IMG/VR virus record: IMGVR_UViG_3300005444_000009
Location: 2,191 to 66,190 of that record
From: a virus
Taxonomy: Duplodnaviria; Caudoviricetes
Reading direction: 5' to 3' (one strand)
Length of the DNA stretch: 64,000 nt
Positions 10,601 to 48,613 of the stretch are shown one piece after another. The position numbers were made by a program, and so were the translations under genes. Position 1 is the stretch's first letter; every line of letters begins with the position of its first letter. The notes beneath the pieces are model-generated. The model was not told where the DNA came from. It made no database searches and worked only from the letters and a program-made list of their open reading frames with translations.

Positions 10601-12479
10601 CACCTGCCTCAATGAGCTTCTTGTCGTTGTCAGAGAGCTTGTCCCAGACGTCCTTCTTACCCGCTAGGTTCTTCGCAAACCACGCGTCGAATGCCAGCGG
10701 CGCGGTCGCTCCACCGGGTGGGAAGTTAAGACTGGCCAACGTAACGGGGGCGTTCGGGTCAGGTGCGTCGGGCTCGAAGCCGGGCATAATCTGCTTACCC
10801 GACGACGCCGCCCAGTTCGGGTCGTTCTCCAGGTACGTCTGCAACTGCCCCTGGTCATACGTCGCGACCGCGAGCCAACCGGGTCCCATCTGCGTCTGGC
10901 GCACGAACTGCTTCTTGTCGTCATTCCAGACGATGCGCTGCGGGTTGCCGTACAGAGGATTGTTCTTCTCGGCGATCAGCGCGCCGTGTGCGAACTTCTG
11001 GCCGAGGTCAATTCCGATCTTCTCCGCCGGCGACTTGACCGTCGGCGCGGCGGAGCCGGGCACCACCCAGTCGCTCTCCTTTGAGAACTTCTTATAGGCT
11101 TCACCCTTACCGTAGCCCGCGTGAGGCACCCACGTCGCGCCGTCGAGCTTGTACACGACGAACTTCTTCGTACTCTCGTTCCAGCGAAGCTGCCACTCGC
11201 CCTTCGCGTCGACCTTCTCCGCCACAACCGCCATGTGTGCGTACTTCTGCTTATAGATGACGTTCGTGTTGATGTGAATCGGCTTGCCGGTAGGCTTCTT
11301 AGGATTTAGCTTAGGTGTTGGCGCAGGCACTCCACCGCCGGCGGCTGCCTCAGCCTCAGCTACAGCCTCCTTTACGTCCTTCCAGTCACCACCGTGAAGT
11401 TTCTTTTCGAGCTCACCGATCGTCAACTTTTCGGAAACGTTCATCCACTTACCGGAGATCAGCTTCTGAACGTAGTACCCAGAGCCGCTTTTTTGTACGC
11501 GCTTTCCTGAACTCTCGTTAACGCCGAGAAGTAGGGTACCATTCGACGTTGCACTTTGAACGATCTCTAGGAGCTTAGGTATGCTTACCATTTTTTCGGC
11601 AAACTGTCCGTGAGCATCACGAGGGTGCTTTGCCTCGTCGGCGGCGGTCCACTTCTTGGCGGCAGTTAACGTCTCGGAATCGTCATCACTAAAGACAAAC
11701 TCTACGGTGCAGCGGCACTGAATGACGTTGTCGGCGCGGCCGTTCGGGTCGCCGGGAAACTGCAGGTACTCGCCGCCGACGCTGAACGCTTGGTTGAGGC
11801 CAACGGTCTGGCCGTCGGCGAGCCGGTGCTCCGGTCGTGTGCGCTCATCATCGGTGGCCAGCCAGCGCTTAGAGCACTCGGCGTCTGTAAAGCCGCCGAG
11901 CTGCACCTGCGCCACCGACGCGGCGTTCGCGGCGGAGATCACCTCCGTCTTTGCAATGACCAGCGCACGCTTCTCGCCGATGTCCTTCGCCACGTTGCGA
12001 ACCCGCGCGGCGAGCTGGTGCGTCGTCTCGCCCGCCTCATAGCCCTCGGCCAGCGTGTCTTTGATCGAGTTCCAGATCAGGTTGCCAACGTTCTTTAGTC
12101 GATTCACCGCGGCACGAAGGTAGTCCTCGGCGGTCAGCGGGTCGATCGGCAAGGTGTCAACGTGCAAAGTGTCGCCGACGAAGCTCCAGGTCTGCTGCGC
12201 CGCGGCGGTGTACGTCTCAAGGAGAAACGGGTACAGCACGGCATCCACGTAGCTGGACCACGTGTCGGGCGCGGCGCTCAGCTCGACGGGGGCCAGGGTG
12301 GCGACCCCGGCCACGGCCGCGGTGGTCGAAATGCTCGGCACCGGTCCAGCCGCCGCGGTAACCAGGGGGTTAAGGCTGACGGCTCTGAAGGCGGCACGGA
12401 TGCCGTTCCGCGCGAGGCCCTCCATGACCTGCTCGCGTGTTTCAAGCTGCGACATGGATAGACCAGCTACATGCCTCAT
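7686..12479 (-). CDS. MuF (gpF-like) minor head protein with repeat domains and two VIP2-like ADP-ribosyltransferase domains
   Basis: MuF motif KRWLATDDERTRPEH...FPGDP...IQCRC; ART1 HRG/FVSTS/ENE; ART2 YRK/FLSTS/EYE; alternative start ATG 12455. Confidence 0.85.
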   Translation of the reverse strand: MRHVAGLSMSQLETREQVMEGLARNGIRAAFRAVSLNPLVTAAAGPVPSISTTAAVAGVATLAPVELSAAPDTWSSYVDAVLYPFLLETYTAAAQQTWSFVGDTLHVDTLPIDPLTAEDYLRAAVNRLKNVGNLIWNSIKDTLAEGYEAGETTHQLAARVRNVAKDIGEKRALVIAKTEVISAANAASVAQVQLGGFTDAECSKRWLATDDERTRPEHRLADGQTVGLNQAFSVGGEYLQFPGDPNGRADNVIQCRCTVEFVFSDDDSETLTAAKKWTAADEAKHPRDAHGQFAEKMVSIPKLLEIVQSATSNGTLLLGVNESSGKRVQKSGSGYYVQKLISGKWMNVSEKLTIGELEKKLHGGDWKDVKEAVAEAEAAAGGGVPAPTPKLNPKKPTGKPIHINTNVIYKQKYAHMAVVAEKVDAKGEWQLRWNESTKKFVVYKLDGATWVPHAGYGKGEAYKKFSKESDWVVPGSAAPTVKSPAEKIGIDLGQKFAHGALIAEKNNPLYGNPQRIVWNDDKKQFVRQTQMGPGWLAVATYDQGQLQTYLENDPNWAASSGKQIMPGFEPDAPDPNAPVTLASLNFPPGGATAPLAFDAWFAKNLAGKKDVWDKLSDNDKKLIEAGAYNATTFGMGSASTQISTWHTIDVSNDSDAALVDKLTNMTNGDFASWAALEVDQAKWDSMSPAAKAVAEKKTATLKAMGKWSNLVAFMDSLKSGSAPPLSPAPKVTSKVKVDPDDISGPQFMSPAFNADGKQIAWIKYFNDGSGAAVYSLDSPDFGGPDGAGGYGIWAGLVDFKGNELLEDEVQKLIDNGKLKPTATNTAGTKSIPPLPPPLPPTPSTPPPHGYNHHLSAHSATKFVGDISQPKVSQKSFSDVTTDEMNKLQHDMLLLSGKKQWTPAEKSAVSFYTTKTGYQSMNGVLRNDETRLKLFSDSQLAQAATSAATLQGAMTPLTRNIKLHRGTGAQQFGFETMKISTDKLKKLEGTKITDRGFVSTSVVAPTNISFDYAKKPIKVIINAPEGTPGVYVSSATPGYSHENEFILGAGTNFHVNEVRAATAADKAQYGDHTEQVVTLTVVPASKQGPKDISSKGIPGKTAALTTTAPPSTSALPSPANSTTSTLKSTGTLGGKGGVPIKLNTNAIYKQSYPDGAVIAEKTNSLNGLKMRLAWRESTKKFILQTQMSDGTWTNFAGYGKGEAYKKFSGDTDWVTPPPGASALGTSGFGPSVSGTPTPAVPTLSAPALPTPPKKPTAPSKFDAAQLQAMHGTPPLLADTQKNAIWQNFKYGGTPTTLSSQPANIFKKLHKAVEAHNASYPLDKLNLLQALKVIDERASKYTVGGNKNAYEKKILDWLQTPSGKSTATKVLNSSTVTTPSGSTVPGLGLQALLAKVKNPSELGVPHTKNVTFEPISDSEAQFMQKTMTGTPDTEWKSSQRSALIKYTGDSYKEMNGVLRGLKTSESSLNLSAARSAQHAQDAMRPITRDIIVYRKTDASQFPGLTDAATFNDIKKFEGKVFQDKGFLSTSVEKGTWSGNVEITIEVPEGTPAAYVGGYGNISKHKSEYEMLLAAGLRYRVLSVQPLYSSGAKVRLRVEP

Positions 12480-14125
12480 CCAGCGCCTCCTCGTGGTCGA
12501 GAGGGCTGCTGGGGTTCGGCGACCGACGAGCTCGTCGGCGACGGGCCAGCGTTACCGCTCCGCCCGCCGGCCGCCTGGTCTGGGTTGGGCTTAGGCTGCT
12601 CGAGCCGCTGGGGCTGGCCGGCGAGCTGCGCCTTGGCCAACTGCTCCGCCTGCTGAACCGTCTGCTCGGGCGGCTTCTCATCGGGAAACAGCTTGTAGAA
12701 CGAGTCGGGAATTGGAAGACCCTGGGCCGCCAGGCCGACCAGAATCTGCTTCTTAAGTTCCTGGTCATCGGGCTTGTCGGCGTCGTCCAAGCCGATGCTC
12801 TTGAGGTACGCCTCATCGGAGATCGAGTTTCGACCGCGTGCGTCCCGCGCGTTCTCGGAGTTGTCGGGATCTGCCGTTAGGTCGGAGATGTCGTACCAGA
12901 CGACGTACCGACCCTTGCCGTCCGGTGTCGTGATACTGCCGCCACCCGCGGTCAGCATCGGCCAGAGAAACACCTCAGTCAAGCCGCCGACGAGCAGCTC
13001 CATCGTGCTGCCGAAGTAGTACTTGACGTTGTCGGCGCTGTCGAGGTAGGCGTTCCAGTGGTTAAGGTCGCCCTTACCCTCCATTGCCTCAGGAGGTGCG
13101 GGAAGTTGACGCGCCAGGCTTTCGACGGCCGCGCGACGCGCATCAATAACCTTCTCGTCAACCCCGTTCGCGATAATGAGGTGCTGAAATTTATCGATGA
13201 ACTCCGACTTAACGCGCAGCGGTACCGGCATCGCACTTCCCGGACTACCCGGGTCGCGAATGCCACGTTGGCCGATAGCGACAAGCTCGGCGATGAACGG
13301 GTCTGGCGCGTCCTTGAACTGCGGGTTAACCGGAAACGTGATTTCCTCCGGAATGAGGAGAAAGCCGTTGAAGACCAATCGAGAGAGCAGCGTCGCGACA
13401 ATGTGTCGGTTGTACAGGTCAACCTGGCGCAGCGTCGTCAACGCGTTCCGTGACCAGCTGGTGACGTTGAAGTCGAGCTCGTCGTCAGGTCGGAAGATGC
13501 GCGCCACGAGACTCTGCGGTCCGAGCGGTCTCCAGCGGTCCGGCTCGTCGAGAACGTCGAAACCCGTCAGAACCTCACCGTAGGCATTCTTTAGTGGTCG
13601 ACCCTGCGCGTCTCTCAGTGGCTGCGTAGAGCGCCTGACCTGCTTCGCCGACTTAACATCGTAGACTCGCCGACCCCCCTGGTTTAACTTGTCTTCGGCG
13701 ATGAAGAAGCCGACGCCGGGAATGCCGAGGTGTCGACCCCACTTAAAGAGGTACTGCGTCTCACCACCTTTAGCGTTGTTGACGAGGTCCTGCACCAGCT
13801 CGGCGGCGGGACCTTCGGTAATCGGCTCGGGCTCCCTAAGACCGTCATCGTAGCGCTGGATTCCCGCCACTAGGTGCATTCGACTAATGCCCGACGCGTA
13901 CCAGTCCATCACGCTGCCGTACTCACCGACGCTACGCGAGTACTCCCAGAGTTCATCCTGCCAGCTTCGGTAGTTCAGAGCGTAGGACTCGCGGTTGACG
14001 CCCTGCAGCGACTGTGCCGACGCGATGAGGATCTGCCGCTCGTGCTCGCTGAGCTCCAGCAGCGCGCGCTGCTCGGCCAGCGCTCCCCCGCGGGGTCGTG
14101 TGCGGTTCGCCGGCAGGTCAGCCAC
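12476..14125 (-). CDS. Portal protein
   Basis: 549 aa upstream of MuF; WQDELWEYSRSVGE, FNGFLLIPEEI and HWNAY patterns of cluster-B-like portals. Confidence 0.8.
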   Translation of the reverse strand: MADLPANRTRPRGGALAEQRALLELSEHERQILIASAQSLQGVNRESYALNYRSWQDELWEYSRSVGEYGSVMDWYASGISRMHLVAGIQRYDDGLREPEPITEGPAAELVQDLVNNAKGGETQYLFKWGRHLGIPGVGFFIAEDKLNQGGRRVYDVKSAKQVRRSTQPLRDAQGRPLKNAYGEVLTGFDVLDEPDRWRPLGPQSLVARIFRPDDELDFNVTSWSRNALTTLRQVDLYNRHIVATLLSRLVFNGFLLIPEEITFPVNPQFKDAPDPFIAELVAIGQRGIRDPGSPGSAMPVPLRVKSEFIDKFQHLIIANGVDEKVIDARRAAVESLARQLPAPPEAMEGKGDLNHWNAYLDSADNVKYYFGSTMELLVGGLTEVFLWPMLTAGGGSITTPDGKGRYVVWYDISDLTADPDNSENARDARGRNSISDEAYLKSIGLDDADKPDDQELKKQILVGLAAQGLPIPDSFYKLFPDEKPPEQTVQQAEQLAKAQLAGQPQRLEQPKPNPDQAAGGRSGNAGPSPTSSSVAEPQQPSRPRGGAG

Positions 14126-14517: not shown

Positions 14518-14546
14518 AGAGAGATACTACAACGGAGAGACGGAAA

Positions 14547-14576
14547 AGCCGCCTGGCCGGTGTTGGCCAGGCGGCT
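14547..14576 (-). terminator. Intrinsic terminator
   Basis: 12-bp stem AGCCGCCTGGCC with 6-nt loop, followed by T-run on the minus strand. Confidence 0.7.
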
Positions 14577-14645
14577 CTCTTAAGGCTAGGGCAACTTCTC
14601 TCGGAGCGGTCGCACCCAGCTTTTAAGTTATTTTCTCTACGTTGC

Positions 14646-15294: not shown

Positions 15295-15323
15295 ATCATA
15301 TCACATTAATGGGCGCCGTGCAA
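15295..15323 (-). promoter_or_regulatory. Sigma70-type promoter with extended -10
   Basis: TTGCAC-N17-TATGAT; the -35 sits mostly in the loop of an 8-bp hairpin (15311-15336). Confidence 0.7.
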
Positions 15324-15342
15324 CCGCGCGGCGCCCAAAACT

Positions 15343-15765
15343 TCACTTAAATACGTAGACGCACTTGACCTCGAGCGCGCCGCCGACCTTAGAATCACGT
15401 GCAACCTCAGTCGTGCCGCGCGTGATTCGACAGTCTAGTCTTTCACCGTAGATCTGTGAGGCCTGGACGAGAATGCGTTGTCCCTGCCGAACGGGCGCCA
15501 GGGCGCGCTGGTAGGGCGACGTAAGTGCGTACTCCTTGTACCGCTCCGGGCTGGCCTCGACCTCAACGGTTACCTGGTCCTTAAGAGTTCGACCCTTCGG
15601 CGGTTGACCGGTGCGCTCCGCAGGCGTGAATTCCACCCACACAATGATCAGGTCGTCCCTGTCGATCAGCTGCTTAACCTTGGGCACAATCGCAAACGCC
15701 GCGACCGCCACCGCGAGAACCACGATGACCCCGATGGGCTTGATTGTCTTAGTGTCGCTGCTCAA
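15343..15765 (-). CDS. Membrane-anchored MmpS-like protein
   Basis: TTG start 6 nt after GGGAGG; N-terminal TM helix; C-terminal LDCRIT...EVKC disulfide pattern. Confidence 0.55.
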   Translation of the reverse strand: MSSDTKTIKPIGVIVVLAVAVAAFAIVPKVKQLIDRDDLIIVWVEFTPAERTGQPPKGRTLKDQVTVEVEASPERYKEYALTSPYQRALAPVRQGQRILVQASQIYGERLDCRITRGTTEVARDSKVGGALEVKCVYVFK

Positions 15766-15992
15766 GTCTTTCCTCCCAAGCGGGAGGGACGCGGGTCGTC
15801 GCCGTAGCCACATTCTCCCGCGTCCCTCTCGGGTTTCCGGTGAGGATCCCTGCCGCACATTCTTCGCCCCGCGCCAGCCTCAGGTCCCAGTTGCCGACCA
15901 GCACGGCCGTGTCTTGGCTAACGCGTCTCCCTCACCGGAGGTCTTTAGTTGTAGCTGGGCAGGTGCGCCGTCGGAGGTAGACCTACCCAACT
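15766..15992 (-). ncRNA. Candidate structured 5' leader / cis-regulatory RNA
   Basis: About 225 nt between a promoter and a start codon; three stems of 10-12 bp plus an anti-SD hairpin; G-U pairs in P1 favour the minus strand. Confidence 0.5.
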
Positions 15993-15997
15993 AGTTC

Positions 15998-16026
15998 ATC
16001 GTATCACTTCGCTGTGATCGATGCAA
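15998..16026 (-). promoter_or_regulatory. Sigma70-type promoter with palindromic spacer
   Basis: TTGCAT-N17-TACGAT; ATCAC-N6-GTGAT at 16003-16018. Confidence 0.7.
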
Positions 16027-16042
16027 ACTCCCTCACTATCGG

Positions 16043-16165
16043 CTACCGGTTCTGCGAGTTTCCGAAGCAGGGCTTCGTGTTCTTGTGCCGGTTGCACGAG
16101 TCGATGCACGCCACCGCGCCGAACAGGACGAGAACGATGGAGATGAAGATGACAGCTTGCTTCAT
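16043..16165 (-). CDS. 40-aa lipoprotein-like microprotein
   Basis: Not in ORF track. MKQAVIFISIVLVLFGAVAC signal/lipobox-like sequence; GAGG SD. Confidence 0.55.
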   Translation of the reverse strand: MKQAVIFISIVLVLFGAVACIDSCNRHKNTKPCFGNSQNR

Positions 16166-16189
16166 GTGTAAACATCCCTCAAACTTGGA

Positions 16190-16342
16190 CTACTTGACAC
16201 CGGGAAGGTCGATCTCTCCAGGATTCGGCATCTTCGAGCTCGGATCAATGAAGAGGTCAGCGAGCCAGCTGAACTGATCGCGGAGGAGCACAATCAACAC
16301 GAGGATGATGACAAAACCCCACACGATGGTCTTAACCTTCAC
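16190..16342 (-). CDS. 50-aa single-TM microprotein
   Basis: Not in ORF track. MKVKTIVWGFVIILVLIVLL; GAGG SD. Confidence 0.55.
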   Translation of the reverse strand: MKVKTIVWGFVIILVLIVLLRDQFSWLADLFIDPSSKMPNPGEIDLPGVK

Positions 16343-16351
16343 TCTTCTTCC

Positions 16352-16633
16352 TCACTTCTCGTGCTTCTTCATGCTGCGCCAGAAGAACGTAAACACGACG
16401 GCCAGAATGATCGCCGTGACGATCAGCGACGTCGCGTTGAACGCGACGGCGCGCTCTCCGTTGTCTGGAGCTGGCGAAGGCGACGGCGCCGCGGCGTGCG
16501 CCGCGTTGTCGCCGATCGGCCAGCAGCCGGTCAGGATGGCCGTGCCGATCCAGATGAGCAGAATCAGTGGAACGATCCACGCCCACCAGCTCTCGGGAAT
16601 CTTGAACTTCCGATCCGCCACACATTCTCCCAT
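16352..16633 (-). CDS. Two-TM membrane protein
   Basis: Two hydrophobic helices joined by an APSPSPAP linker; start uncertain. Confidence 0.6.
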   Translation of the reverse strand: MGECVADRKFKIPESWWAWIVPLILLIWIGTAILTGCWPIGDNAAHAAAPSPSPAPDNGERAVAFNATSLIVTAIILAVVFTFFWRSMKKHEK

Positions 16634-16647
16634 CTGCAGTTGTTTAC

Positions 16648-16689
16648 CTGAGTTTATCATACCAAACGAGTATGATCAAGTAAACTCAG
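16648..16689 (-). promoter_or_regulatory. Promoter embedded in a 42-bp imperfect palindrome
   Basis: TTTACT-N17-TATGAT inside CTGAGTTTATCATAC-N7-GTATGAT-CAAG-TAAACTCAG. Confidence 0.6.
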
Positions 16690-18573: not shown

Positions 18574-18602
18574 ATCATATCACATTAATGTGATGTATGC
18601 AA
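18574..18602 (-). promoter_or_regulatory. Sigma70-type promoter with perfect 16-bp palindrome
   Basis: TTGCAT-N17-TATGAT; ATCACATTAATGTGAT at 18579-18594. Confidence 0.75.
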
Positions 18603-18622: not shown

Positions 18623-20221
18623 TCAGTAGCCTCGACGCTCCCCGGACCAGCTACCAAACCCGGCGTTCGATCCTAGGCCGGTGAAGCTGCCGTTCATCAG
18701 GTCGCTGGCACCGACGGAGCCGAGAAGGCTGGGCGCCTCCAGTAGCGCGTTCGTCTTGAGCTCAGCCGTCCAGCTCGCGGGCACGAACGCCAGCAGCGCA
18801 GACTCGGCCAAGTCGGGCGACACGCCGAGCCTCTCGATGATCTTACTCTTCGCCTCGATCTGCACACGACCCTTAGCGTCGACGATCTTATACAGCGGCA
18901 TCGTCAGCTCGCTGATCAACTGGTCCTGCAGCTCTGGGTTCAGCGCAGATAGGTCCCAGCTCTTCGTGCGCGACAGCTCGCGGCCAAGCCACCACATCTC
19001 GGCGCGGCGGTTAAAGTACAGGTGCTCGTTGCCCACCGTAGCCGTCATCGCGACGTTGATCGGCACCACGGACGCGTCGTGCCCCGTCGCATCGGTCGCA
19101 CGCTGCGCGTCGAGCACCTCCAGTGGCGCCGAGGCGTGCCTGCTGGACAGGGCGCGTAGGTGACCGTAGACGCCCCAGCCGACGCCGATGCTGTCGACCT
19201 TGACGAACGCGACGCCCCACTCGCGTAGAAGCTGAACGATCGACCCGACTGTGGTCGTTGGGTCGGGCGACACGAACTGCTGGACGTGAAGTATCGTGTT
19301 GCCTCGTCGGATCGTCACGACGGTCCGGTCGTTCCCGGCGCCGACGTCGACCCCGGCCTCGGTGTGCATCGTCGGGTCGACAGGCAGCTCGAGGTAGCGA
19401 CACTGCGACGCCCAGTCGTGCGGCACGACCTGCCAGGGCGAGCCGACGGTCGGAAAGTTACCCTCGCACTTTGACTGGAACAGCGCCGAGTGCGCACCCC
19501 AGACCTTACGGCGGTCCTCCACCCAGCCGGGGCTAATGAGCATCTCGCGCAGGCGGTCGGAGACGACCTCACCGGTAAAGTTTGGCGTGTGCTGATAAGA
19601 AATGTGAATTACGTGCCAACCCGAGCCCGGCTTGCAGATGTCCTCGAACATACCAGCGCCGTCGGGGTTACCCACGGCCACCATGCGCGCGTTCTCGTTG
19701 GACGCCAGTGATGACCCCTCGTTCCACAGGTGCAGGGGTATCCCGTACGCCTCGTCGAATATCACCATGAGGTAGCGAGCGTGAAGGCCCTGGAAGGCGG
19801 CCTCCACGTGGTCGGGTGGCTTCCGGCCGAGCGCCGCCAGGAACTTTCCGAGGAACCACTCCCGCTTATTGGTGTGGCCGGCGAGGCCGAGTCGCTCGTG
19901 GTGCTGGTTGATCTCGTTCCACAGAACCGCGTCGACCTGCTTAGACGTCGGCGCCGTTGAGATGACGCGAGCCTCACCTGCCGGGTGAGCGTCGATCCAC
20001 CAGCACGTCAGCAGTCCCATTGTGTAGCTCTTACCCGCGGAGTGGCACGATCGGATCGCCACCTTCGGGTGATCCCGGACGGCCTGCAGAATCTCACGCT
20101 GCTTCGACCAGATCTCGACCTTGGCCCGCTCGATCGCCCAGCGCGTCGGGTCGCGGCGCCACTTCAGGTTGGCGGGCGCCGCGTACTCGGCGAACAGCTG
20201 AGCTCTCGTCTTAGCCTGCAC
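18623..20221 (-). CDS. Terminase large subunit
   Basis: Walker A IRSCHSAGKS, Walker B VIFDEA, nuclease motifs GVDVG and SPDLAES. Confidence 0.9.
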   Translation of the reverse strand: MQAKTRAQLFAEYAAPANLKWRRDPTRWAIERAKVEIWSKQREILQAVRDHPKVAIRSCHSAGKSYTMGLLTCWWIDAHPAGEARVISTAPTSKQVDAVLWNEINQHHERLGLAGHTNKREWFLGKFLAALGRKPPDHVEAAFQGLHARYLMVIFDEAYGIPLHLWNEGSSLASNENARMVAVGNPDGAGMFEDICKPGSGWHVIHISYQHTPNFTGEVVSDRLREMLISPGWVEDRRKVWGAHSALFQSKCEGNFPTVGSPWQVVPHDWASQCRYLELPVDPTMHTEAGVDVGAGNDRTVVTIRRGNTILHVQQFVSPDPTTTVGSIVQLLREWGVAFVKVDSIGVGWGVYGHLRALSSRHASAPLEVLDAQRATDATGHDASVVPINVAMTATVGNEHLYFNRRAEMWWLGRELSRTKSWDLSALNPELQDQLISELTMPLYKIVDAKGRVQIEAKSKIIERLGVSPDLAESALLAFVPASWTAELKTNALLEAPSLLGSVGASDLMNGSFTGLGSNAGFGSWSGERRGY

Positions 20222-20230
20222 CAGCTCAGC

Positions 20231-20401
20231 CTAGCTCAGGGTCCAGCCGAGCATCAGGTCGCGCAGGTTGAGGCCCGCCGCGTAGATGAGGCCGAGCAGT
20301 AGAAGAACGCTGGCGGCGTACCGGTGCAAGTTACGCTCAACCCAGCGCTTCACCCGGTTCCACCAACTACGACGCTTGAACGGAAGTGCATAGGTACTCA
20401 T
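20231..20401 (-). CDS. Small TM protein
   Basis: Start reassigned to ATG 20401; C-terminal hydrophobic helix. Confidence 0.55.
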   Translation of the reverse strand: MSTYALPFKRRSWWNRVKRWVERNLHRYAASVLLLLGLIYAAGLNLRDLMLGWTLS

Positions 20402-20461
20402 AGTGACTAACTGTAGCACGCGTGTCAAACCGTAGCCACACTAAGTCACATTATGTACGGC

Positions 20462-20495
20462 GAAGGCCCCCAGCCTGGCGGGGCTGGGGGCCTTC
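20462..20495. terminator. Terminator-like hairpin
   Basis: 14-bp stem GAAGGCCCCCAGCC with 6-nt loop. Confidence 0.7.
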
Positions 20496-20521
20496 TCCTC
20501 CCGGGGATTAAGGTCTAGGTG

Positions 20522-48584: not shown

Positions 48585-48613
48585 TTGCATGTGGTCATAC
48601 TGTGTTGTATGAT
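48585..48613 (+). promoter_or_regulatory. Sigma70-type promoter
   Basis: TTGCAT-N17-TATGAT immediately after the terminator. Confidence 0.7.

Follow-up and report, generated by a model that had tools for sequence, protein, structure and literature searches.

A conserved, modular structured RNA ahead of an MmpS-like gene in an uncultivated actinophage, with relatives in tRNA-associated contexts

The leader that precedes a small membrane-protein gene on the minus strand of the 64,000-nucleotide stretch of viral DNA analysed here (the window) is a real, conserved and modular structured RNA. Its core, the P2/P2a domain (15836–15939), is a member of a small and hitherto undescribed structured-RNA family that is carried by a single clade of uncultivated soil actinophages. 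Three RNA modules, each evolving and moving independently of the others, make up the leader, and the RNA resembles an autonomous module more than it does a switch dedicated to the membrane-protein gene.

The window covers nearly the whole of an IMG/VR virus record that is 66 kb long and bears direct terminal repeats. The best matches of its portal protein among isolated phages were all to actinophages and all showed <28% identity; the window was therefore assigned to an uncultivated actinophage lineage. BLASTN analysis of a 1.1-kb region against isolated phages returned no match. The genes around the leader are carried by the minus strand, on which the large terminase (18623–20221) and portal (12476–14125) genes are separated by a 4.5-kb block of small genes. 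The leader lies inside this block and occupies most of a 277-nt intergenic gap, bounded by a 40-codon membrane microgene (stop codon 16045–16043) and by a 140-codon gene with a TTG start codon at 15765. Elsewhere on the minus strand, the portal gene is followed (below 12476) by a gene for a protein of ~1600 amino acids, for which the precomputed Pfam annotation shows matches to Phage_Mu_F and to an ADP-ribosyltransferase toxin domain, as it is in the relatives. Two palindromes between 17760 and 17900 (minus strand; z = -5.4), one long, perfect and AT-rich and the other short, are found just upstream of a small gene and look like DNA operator sites rather than RNA structure. A strong 14-bp GC hairpin with further structure (20215–20520, minus strand; z = -3.9) is located upstream of the terminase gene.

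A script check of base pairing confirmed, position for position, all four helices that a preliminary description of this DNA had proposed on the minus strand. P1 has 12 bp including two U-G pairs, P2 has 10 perfect bp, P3 has 12 perfect bp, and a hairpin containing the Shine-Dalgarno (SD) sequence has 6 bp and a 4-nt loop; this last hairpin has 4 nt in common with the 3′ arm of P3, as had been claimed. The G-U pairs in the helices fix the transcribed strand. A second purine copy (15922–15933), said to be able to pair with the 3′ arm of P3, does so, but over only 6 contiguous bp followed by 4 more past a 2-nt bulge. The whole leader folded at -106 kcal/mol (z = -2.79), and 2 of 200 shuffled sequences did equally well. 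The background for 230-nt segments over 9 kb of the same strand had a mean z of -0.77 (sd 1.5), with several segments between -3 and -5.9. As several same-strand segments are more extreme, folding energy alone does not single out the leader: it folds better than most shuffled controls, as the preliminary description would have it, but is not exceptional for this genome. No family in Rfam 15 matched the leader, in agreement with the earlier view that it holds no recognised aptamer. A scan of the whole window at gathering thresholds reported one tRNA only, and a permissive scan of 15500–16300 gave three matches at chance level (E 2.6–8.6). Neither ARAGORN nor Rfam detected a tRNA or tmRNA in the leader.

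Direct reading of the sequence upstream of P1 revealed a promoter-like site (15998–16026, minus strand) consisting of a -35 element at 16026–16021, a 17-nt spacer and a -10 element at 16003–15998. The expected transcript start, at approximately 15992/15991, is the first base of P1, which agrees with the proposal that the leader begins at a promoter. Near-identical sites were found at 18602–18574 and 15323–15295 on the minus strand and at 48585–48613 on the plus strand; the second of these sits right after a GC-rich hairpin (15311–15336, minus strand) which was read directly just past the stop codon of the MmpS-like gene and which is not followed by a U-tract. A consensus promoter scan did not report the leader's site. 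The same site was present 45–73 nt before the core in loci L005, L072 and L011 and 13–41 nt before it in L032. Three of the five lineages have a promoter-like site ahead of the RNA. A canonical intrinsic terminator, with a 14-bp GC stem and then a U-tract, was observed at 14541–14578 (minus strand) in a 128-nt gap before the DUF1360 gene; this region has a z of approximately -5, much stronger than that of the leader.

The conserved core, together with its linker, extends from 15954 to 15836 on the minus strand. P2 is formed by 15939–15930 and 15845–15836, with an additional G-U pair between 15929 and 15846, and P2a by 15925–15916 and 15879–15870. The loop between them has a 5′ strand at 15928–15926 and a 3′ strand at 15869–15846, and the apical part of the domain (15915–15880) is variable. 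The core thus has two stacked helices of approximately 11 bp flanking an asymmetric internal loop. All members share an A-rich linker, a P2 of 11–12 bp, a short purine 5′ loop strand, a P2a of 7–12 bp and a 3′ loop strand of 21–24 nt. In the window the linker (15940–15954) is single-stranded, lies just 5′ of P2 and is nearly invariant among the window group, L011, L105 and L032. The 3′ loop strand contains a block (15847–15862), with an ATG at 15860–15858, in which 15 of 16 nucleotides are the same across all five lineages and only position 15855 varies; L032 and L038 were found by means of this block, so that its invariance is partly due to ascertainment.

The domain was identified by two covariance models (R1 and R2), by covariation and by independent folds. 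Seven sequences representing the five lineages were aligned, and all 17 P2 and P2a pairs were paired in 100% of cells, compared to 34–48% in slid controls, the alignment having been fitted to the covariance model, which flatters these figures. At 10 of these pairs both sides of the helix had changed, and 0 of 500 shuffles reached this result. Folds of single sequences, made independently of the model, reproduced the same architecture. L011 alone folded as P1, linker, P2 domain and P3 (z = -5.6), and in L038 the whole of P2 was resequenced and still formed a perfect 12-bp helix, with P2a likewise resequenced. The core has in common with riboswitch classes its covarying stems and its invariant unpaired bases, which resemble a ligand pocket. 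Inspection by eye revealed no pseudoknot that would join the invariant loop strand to the apical loop or to the 5′ linker.

P1 (15952–15993, minus strand), identified by pairing, folding and covariation, is the 5′-terminal hairpin, with a stem of 12–13 bp and a 16-nt loop (15980–15965). Its stems covary among the window, L072, L011, L012 and L013 and its loop sequence is conserved. P1 is absent in L105, L032 and L038, and it occurs in L012 and L013 with no P2 domain, directly before the pyrimidine tract and SD; it behaves as a separate, mobile module. These P1-type hairpins (L012:855–895 and L013:598–640) have covarying stems of 12–14 bp and conserved loops of 15–16 nt. The loop in L013 is the reverse complement of the others, with the stem arms, including their G-U pairs, retaining the orientation of the gene, which suggests a DNA-level inversion between the P1 arms.

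P3 (15784–15828, minus strand), supported by pairing and folds, is a strong hairpin of 12 bp, or up to 17 bp with its foot, and has a structured loop. Close relatives showed one compensatory change (A-U to G-C) and wobble changes. At its position the two diverged lineages L011 and L105, both with recognisable homologues of the leader, have long hairpins of unrelated sequence; L105 has the P2 domain and a P3 and lacks P1. P3 is absent in L032 and L038. A minus-strand terminator scan reported no intrinsic terminator at P3, and the tail that follows it in the window is C-rich and has no clear U-tract. The tail is more U-rich in close relatives, in which P3 may cause leaky termination.

The core was found in five lineages, in three of which it lies ahead of homologues of the 140-aa gene product, in one within a tRNA array and in one before a tRNA-like element. 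The array copy, L032, is a locus in the complete 98.9-kb relative G001, where the core is located between the tRNA-Glu and tRNA-Ala genes of a 36-tRNA array and has its own promoter of the same type as that in the window. The homologue of the MmpS-like gene encoded by G001 is 9.7 kb from the core, directly coupled to a small upstream ORF and without a leader. In L038 the tRNA-like element (L038:5470–5544; Rfam tRNA clan, E 1e-5; ARAGORN silent) begins 5 nt after P2 and is followed by the syntenic genes for a microprotein, a 151-aa protein and a DUF1360 protein, and no MmpS-like gene is present. A tRNA-Lys gene (L104:303–377) fills the leader slot before the MmpS-like gene of L104. In four further loci, including L003, L014 and L015, the gene has no leader and is coupled to the preceding ORF, and in L012 and L013 it is preceded by the P1-like hairpin only. 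The core does not therefore show the consistent 5′-leader placement before related genes that marks a riboswitch class. Occurring as it does within a tRNA array and ahead of a tRNA-like element, the RNA is not tied to the gene. A standalone ncRNA, which the preliminary description had kept as its fallback, fits these two contexts better than the switch does; the proposal of a switch dedicated to this gene was not supported, as the core occurs without the gene and homologues of the gene occur without the core.

L032 and L038 were recovered by scanning viral contigs with a 15-base pattern of the invariant block. This pattern gave 39 matches, of which only these two are members; L033 and L040 were rejected because their matches are inside long ORFs, and L024/L048 because its match is an SD and start codon. 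Model R1, built on the P2 domain, accepted both as members, with scores of 54 bits for L032 and 33 bits for L038, and the rebuilt model R2 scored the L032 copy at 77 bits. A two-part pattern applied to metagenome and genome collections gave three real matches, the close relatives L068, L072 and L074, and all 21 of its matches in bacterial and archaeal genomes were attributed to chance. An exact 19-mer from the apical loop, which later proved not to be conserved, had no match in viral contigs. The core was absent from 16 loci syntenic via the DUF1360 gene and from four further complete phage relatives, the covariance model had no match in 4 actinobacterial genomes, and the invariant block had one chance match only in 401 Actinomycetes genomes. 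Phage genomes that have the core carry one copy of it.

Only three clusters were matched by the product of the downstream gene at ≥90% identity. The contigs of these clusters provided one diverged copy of the leader, L005, with 89% identity over 800 nt. Where L005 differs from the window within a predicted helix, the pairing is preserved. The genes flanking the L005 leader are 98–100% identical to those of the window; on these sequence comparisons the leader cassette is a local hot spot of divergence. The section from 15343 to 16660, which includes small membrane genes, the leader and the MmpS-like gene, is 84–90% identical to the corresponding sections of L005, L072 and L074. In L074, two variants of the leader are combined in a chimera. 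The cassette is a hot spot of recombination or diversification.

The gene downstream of the leader (15343–15765, minus strand) encodes a 140-aa membrane-anchored MmpS-like protein, as judged from its family, aligned N-terminus and fold. The N-termini of its homologues align at the TTG at 15765, which upholds that start codon. A start further upstream, an alternative raised in the preliminary description, was rejected on this alignment together with two further observations. In L005, indels relative to the window (+3 and -1 nt, beside the SD) leave the upstream extension and the gene in separate frames, and stop codons interrupt all frames of the leader in all lineages. These two observations also led us to reject a coding role for the leader. 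An exhaustive HMMER search placed the protein in a family of 33 representatives (24–41% identity), which have a single membrane helix and a beta-sandwich carrying conserved cysteines. A protein-pattern search of viral contigs with the gene product gave no match, and a reduced alignment of the family used as a query gave two loci, both without the RNA. The earlier MmpS-like label holds at the level of the fold: the AlphaFold model (pLDDT 88) had MmpS5 chains as its top two PDB matches, with a TM-score of 0.81 on the target and an rmsd of 2.0 over 101 columns. The Pfam family PF05423 (MmpS) did not match the window protein and matched 2 of the 33 family members weakly, below the Pfam threshold (best E 0.011). 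Like the MmpS accessory proteins of MmpL transporters, the protein has an N-terminal membrane helix and a small beta-sandwich with conserved cysteines; unlike them, it is phage-encoded and its sequence similarity lies below the Pfam threshold. No gene for an MmpL partner was found in the phage region examined.

The preliminary description had proposed that a hairpin hides the SD of this gene in one of two states. The proposed hairpin (15772–15787, minus strand; pairing check) consists of a pyrimidine tract at 15787–15782, a 4-nt loop and the SD at 15777–15772, and the pyrimidine tract before the SD recurs in L005, L011, L105, L012 and L013. For the RNA from P2 through to the start codon, the fold with full P3 was predicted at -39.4 kcal/mol compared to -34.8 kcal/mol with the SD hairpin enforced (4.6 worse), which corresponds to a predicted population of approximately 0.001 for the SD-hairpin state. 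The mean unpaired probability of the SD was 0.24–0.34, and the median for 55 other SD-bearing ORFs of the phage was 0.33. The predicted dominant state did not have the SD in a weak, meltable helix, as an RNA thermometer would. With its closed state predicted to be so rarely populated and an SD of typical accessibility for this phage, the two-state switch was not supported for this gene, and the modelled folds make a weak case for the proposed SD-hiding switch. As the hairpin, pyrimidine tract and SD are also present in L012 and L013, where there is no P2 domain, they probably do not form an expression platform that requires the core.

Our preferred reading, plausible and still tentative, is that of an autonomous, promoter-driven phage RNA module which has a macromolecular partner at its invariant loop and which is, in this phage, the 5′ part of the mRNA of the gene. 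The core occupies a slot used for tRNA genes in relatives and is therefore read as an autonomous small-RNA module and not as a sensor dedicated to one gene; it would usually come with its own phage promoter. Transcription would begin from the 16026–15998 promoter, making the RNA the 5′ part of the MmpS-like mRNA. P1 would cap the 5′ end and may protect the transcript, the invariant loop strand would offer a surface to which a macromolecular partner, in all likelihood a protein, binds, and P3 would be a stable boundary hairpin whose foot, when fully formed, holds the pyrimidine tract and leaves the SD open by default. With the SD open by default, ribosomes would translate the gene on this transcript or on one that arises by read-through. 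The RNA may accumulate as a separate species, and it may have an effect on the gene. Several observations count against an autonomous module: in three of the five lineages the core is approximately 90–100 nt before a start codon, as a cis-regulator would be; the foot of the hairpin that follows it can trade places with the SD; P3, having no clear U-tract in the window, leaves the release of a separate RNA unexplained there; and the family is tiny, with two of its members found through the invariant block.

A rival explanation is a cis-acting sensor, a riboswitch or protein-binding leader in which P2/P2a would bind a small molecule or protein and its folding state would open or close the SD of the MmpS-like gene, acting by way of either P3 with the pyrimidine tract or the SD-like P2 arms. 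The anatomy of the core is aptamer-like, with covarying stems and invariant loop nucleotides, it is a 5′ leader in three lineages with a hairpin and pyrimidine tract adjoining the SD, and in the gene-linked lineages the P2 arms are SD-like and anti-SD-like. In these respects it resembles translational riboswitches and protein-binding leaders that occlude the SD, which also have a conserved core, covarying helices, invariant junction bases and, as in these three lineages, a hairpin foot competing with a pyrimidine tract that pairs with the SD. It differs from them in that its context is not tied to one gene class, it matches no Rfam family, the platform-like hairpin occurs without the core and the core without the platform, and the SD-closed state is predicted to be negligible. 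As the domain is also found in the tRNA array and before the tRNA-like element, is uncoupled in G001 from that phage's own homologue of the gene, and is missing in L012 and L013 from ahead of the same hairpin, tract and SD, and as the SD is of average accessibility and the searches of Rfam, of 4 actinobacterial genomes and of 401 Actinomycetes genomes brought no relative, we consider such a sensor unlikely. More doubtful still is a processing signal or self-cleaving element, in which a double-strand RNase of the host would cleave P2/P2a, or P2/P2a would cleave itself, separating upstream transcripts from the gene or the tRNAs and leaving defined ends protected by hairpins. The position of the core between cistrons and beside tRNA genes, which are themselves processing sites, would suit this, as would the conservation of both the loop strand and the flank immediately 5′ of P2. 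The RNase III processing hairpins of phage T7 are stacked helices of approximately one turn around an asymmetric internal loop and lie between cistrons, and the core, with its two helices of approximately 11 bp, its asymmetric loop and its placement, recalls them. However, its 3′ loop strand of 22–24 nt is invariant and far larger than that in known RNase III sites, no ribozyme family in Rfam matched, and in three lineages its own promoter is immediately upstream, often leaving nothing upstream to be separated.

That the leader encodes a peptide is highly improbable. The ATG at 15860–15858 opens a frame of 32 codons, from which the gene would be translated by termination-reinitiation; in the window this frame is uninterrupted, its terminal TGA shares bases with the TTG start codon (15765–15762), G-rich SD-like bases are present 7–11 nt before the ATG, and the variable positions 15855 (in the block) and 15846 (just after it) are third codon positions. 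The overlap of stop and start codons is, however, kept in no other lineage: the frame runs 12 nt into the gene in L005 and stops after 13 codons in L011, and it is 28 codons long in L032 and 20 in L038, with no gene after it in either of these two. Third positions, including that of a rare Arg codon, are invariant and the sole change is non-synonymous, which indicates constraint at the RNA level, and the presumed SD is buried in P2a. To a GC-rich intergenic spacer that folds by chance and has no specific function we give almost no credence: the z-score is unremarkable for this genome, but the architecture has been kept through many compensatory changes in five lineages and the loop strand is invariant. 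A bolder idea, and a doubtful one, is that P2/P2a is a new functional class of RNA, either a ligand-sensing aptamer or a self-cleaving or processing ribozyme, which actinophages would move as a cassette between tRNA arrays and membrane-protein leaders, or else a decoy linked to tRNA arrays and directed against host RNA-targeting defence.

An autonomous phage RNA module would have counterparts among the phage non-coding RNAs that lie beside tRNA genes, such as the stable RNAs C and D of T4 and the GOLLD and ROOL RNAs. Like them, the core is phage-borne, structured and found in or next to tRNA clusters, where it is presumably matured with the tRNAs. It is much smaller than they are (approximately 100–120 nt), shows no sequence or model similarity to them in the Rfam scan and is, in most members, fused to the 5′ end of an mRNA.

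The structured RNAs of actinobacterial phages are almost unexplored, and this core combines clear covariation support and a promoter of its own with unusual contexts, an MmpS-like leader and a tRNA array, and belongs to no curated family. The covariance model from this analysis can be used for enlarging the family. That the phage encodes an MmpS-like protein suggests that it interferes with MmpL-type transport of its host. If the core senses a ligand or is self-cleaving, it would represent a new class of RNA; if it binds a host or phage factor, it would offer a new handle on how translation, the supply of tRNAs or envelope transport is controlled by these phages in the course of infection.
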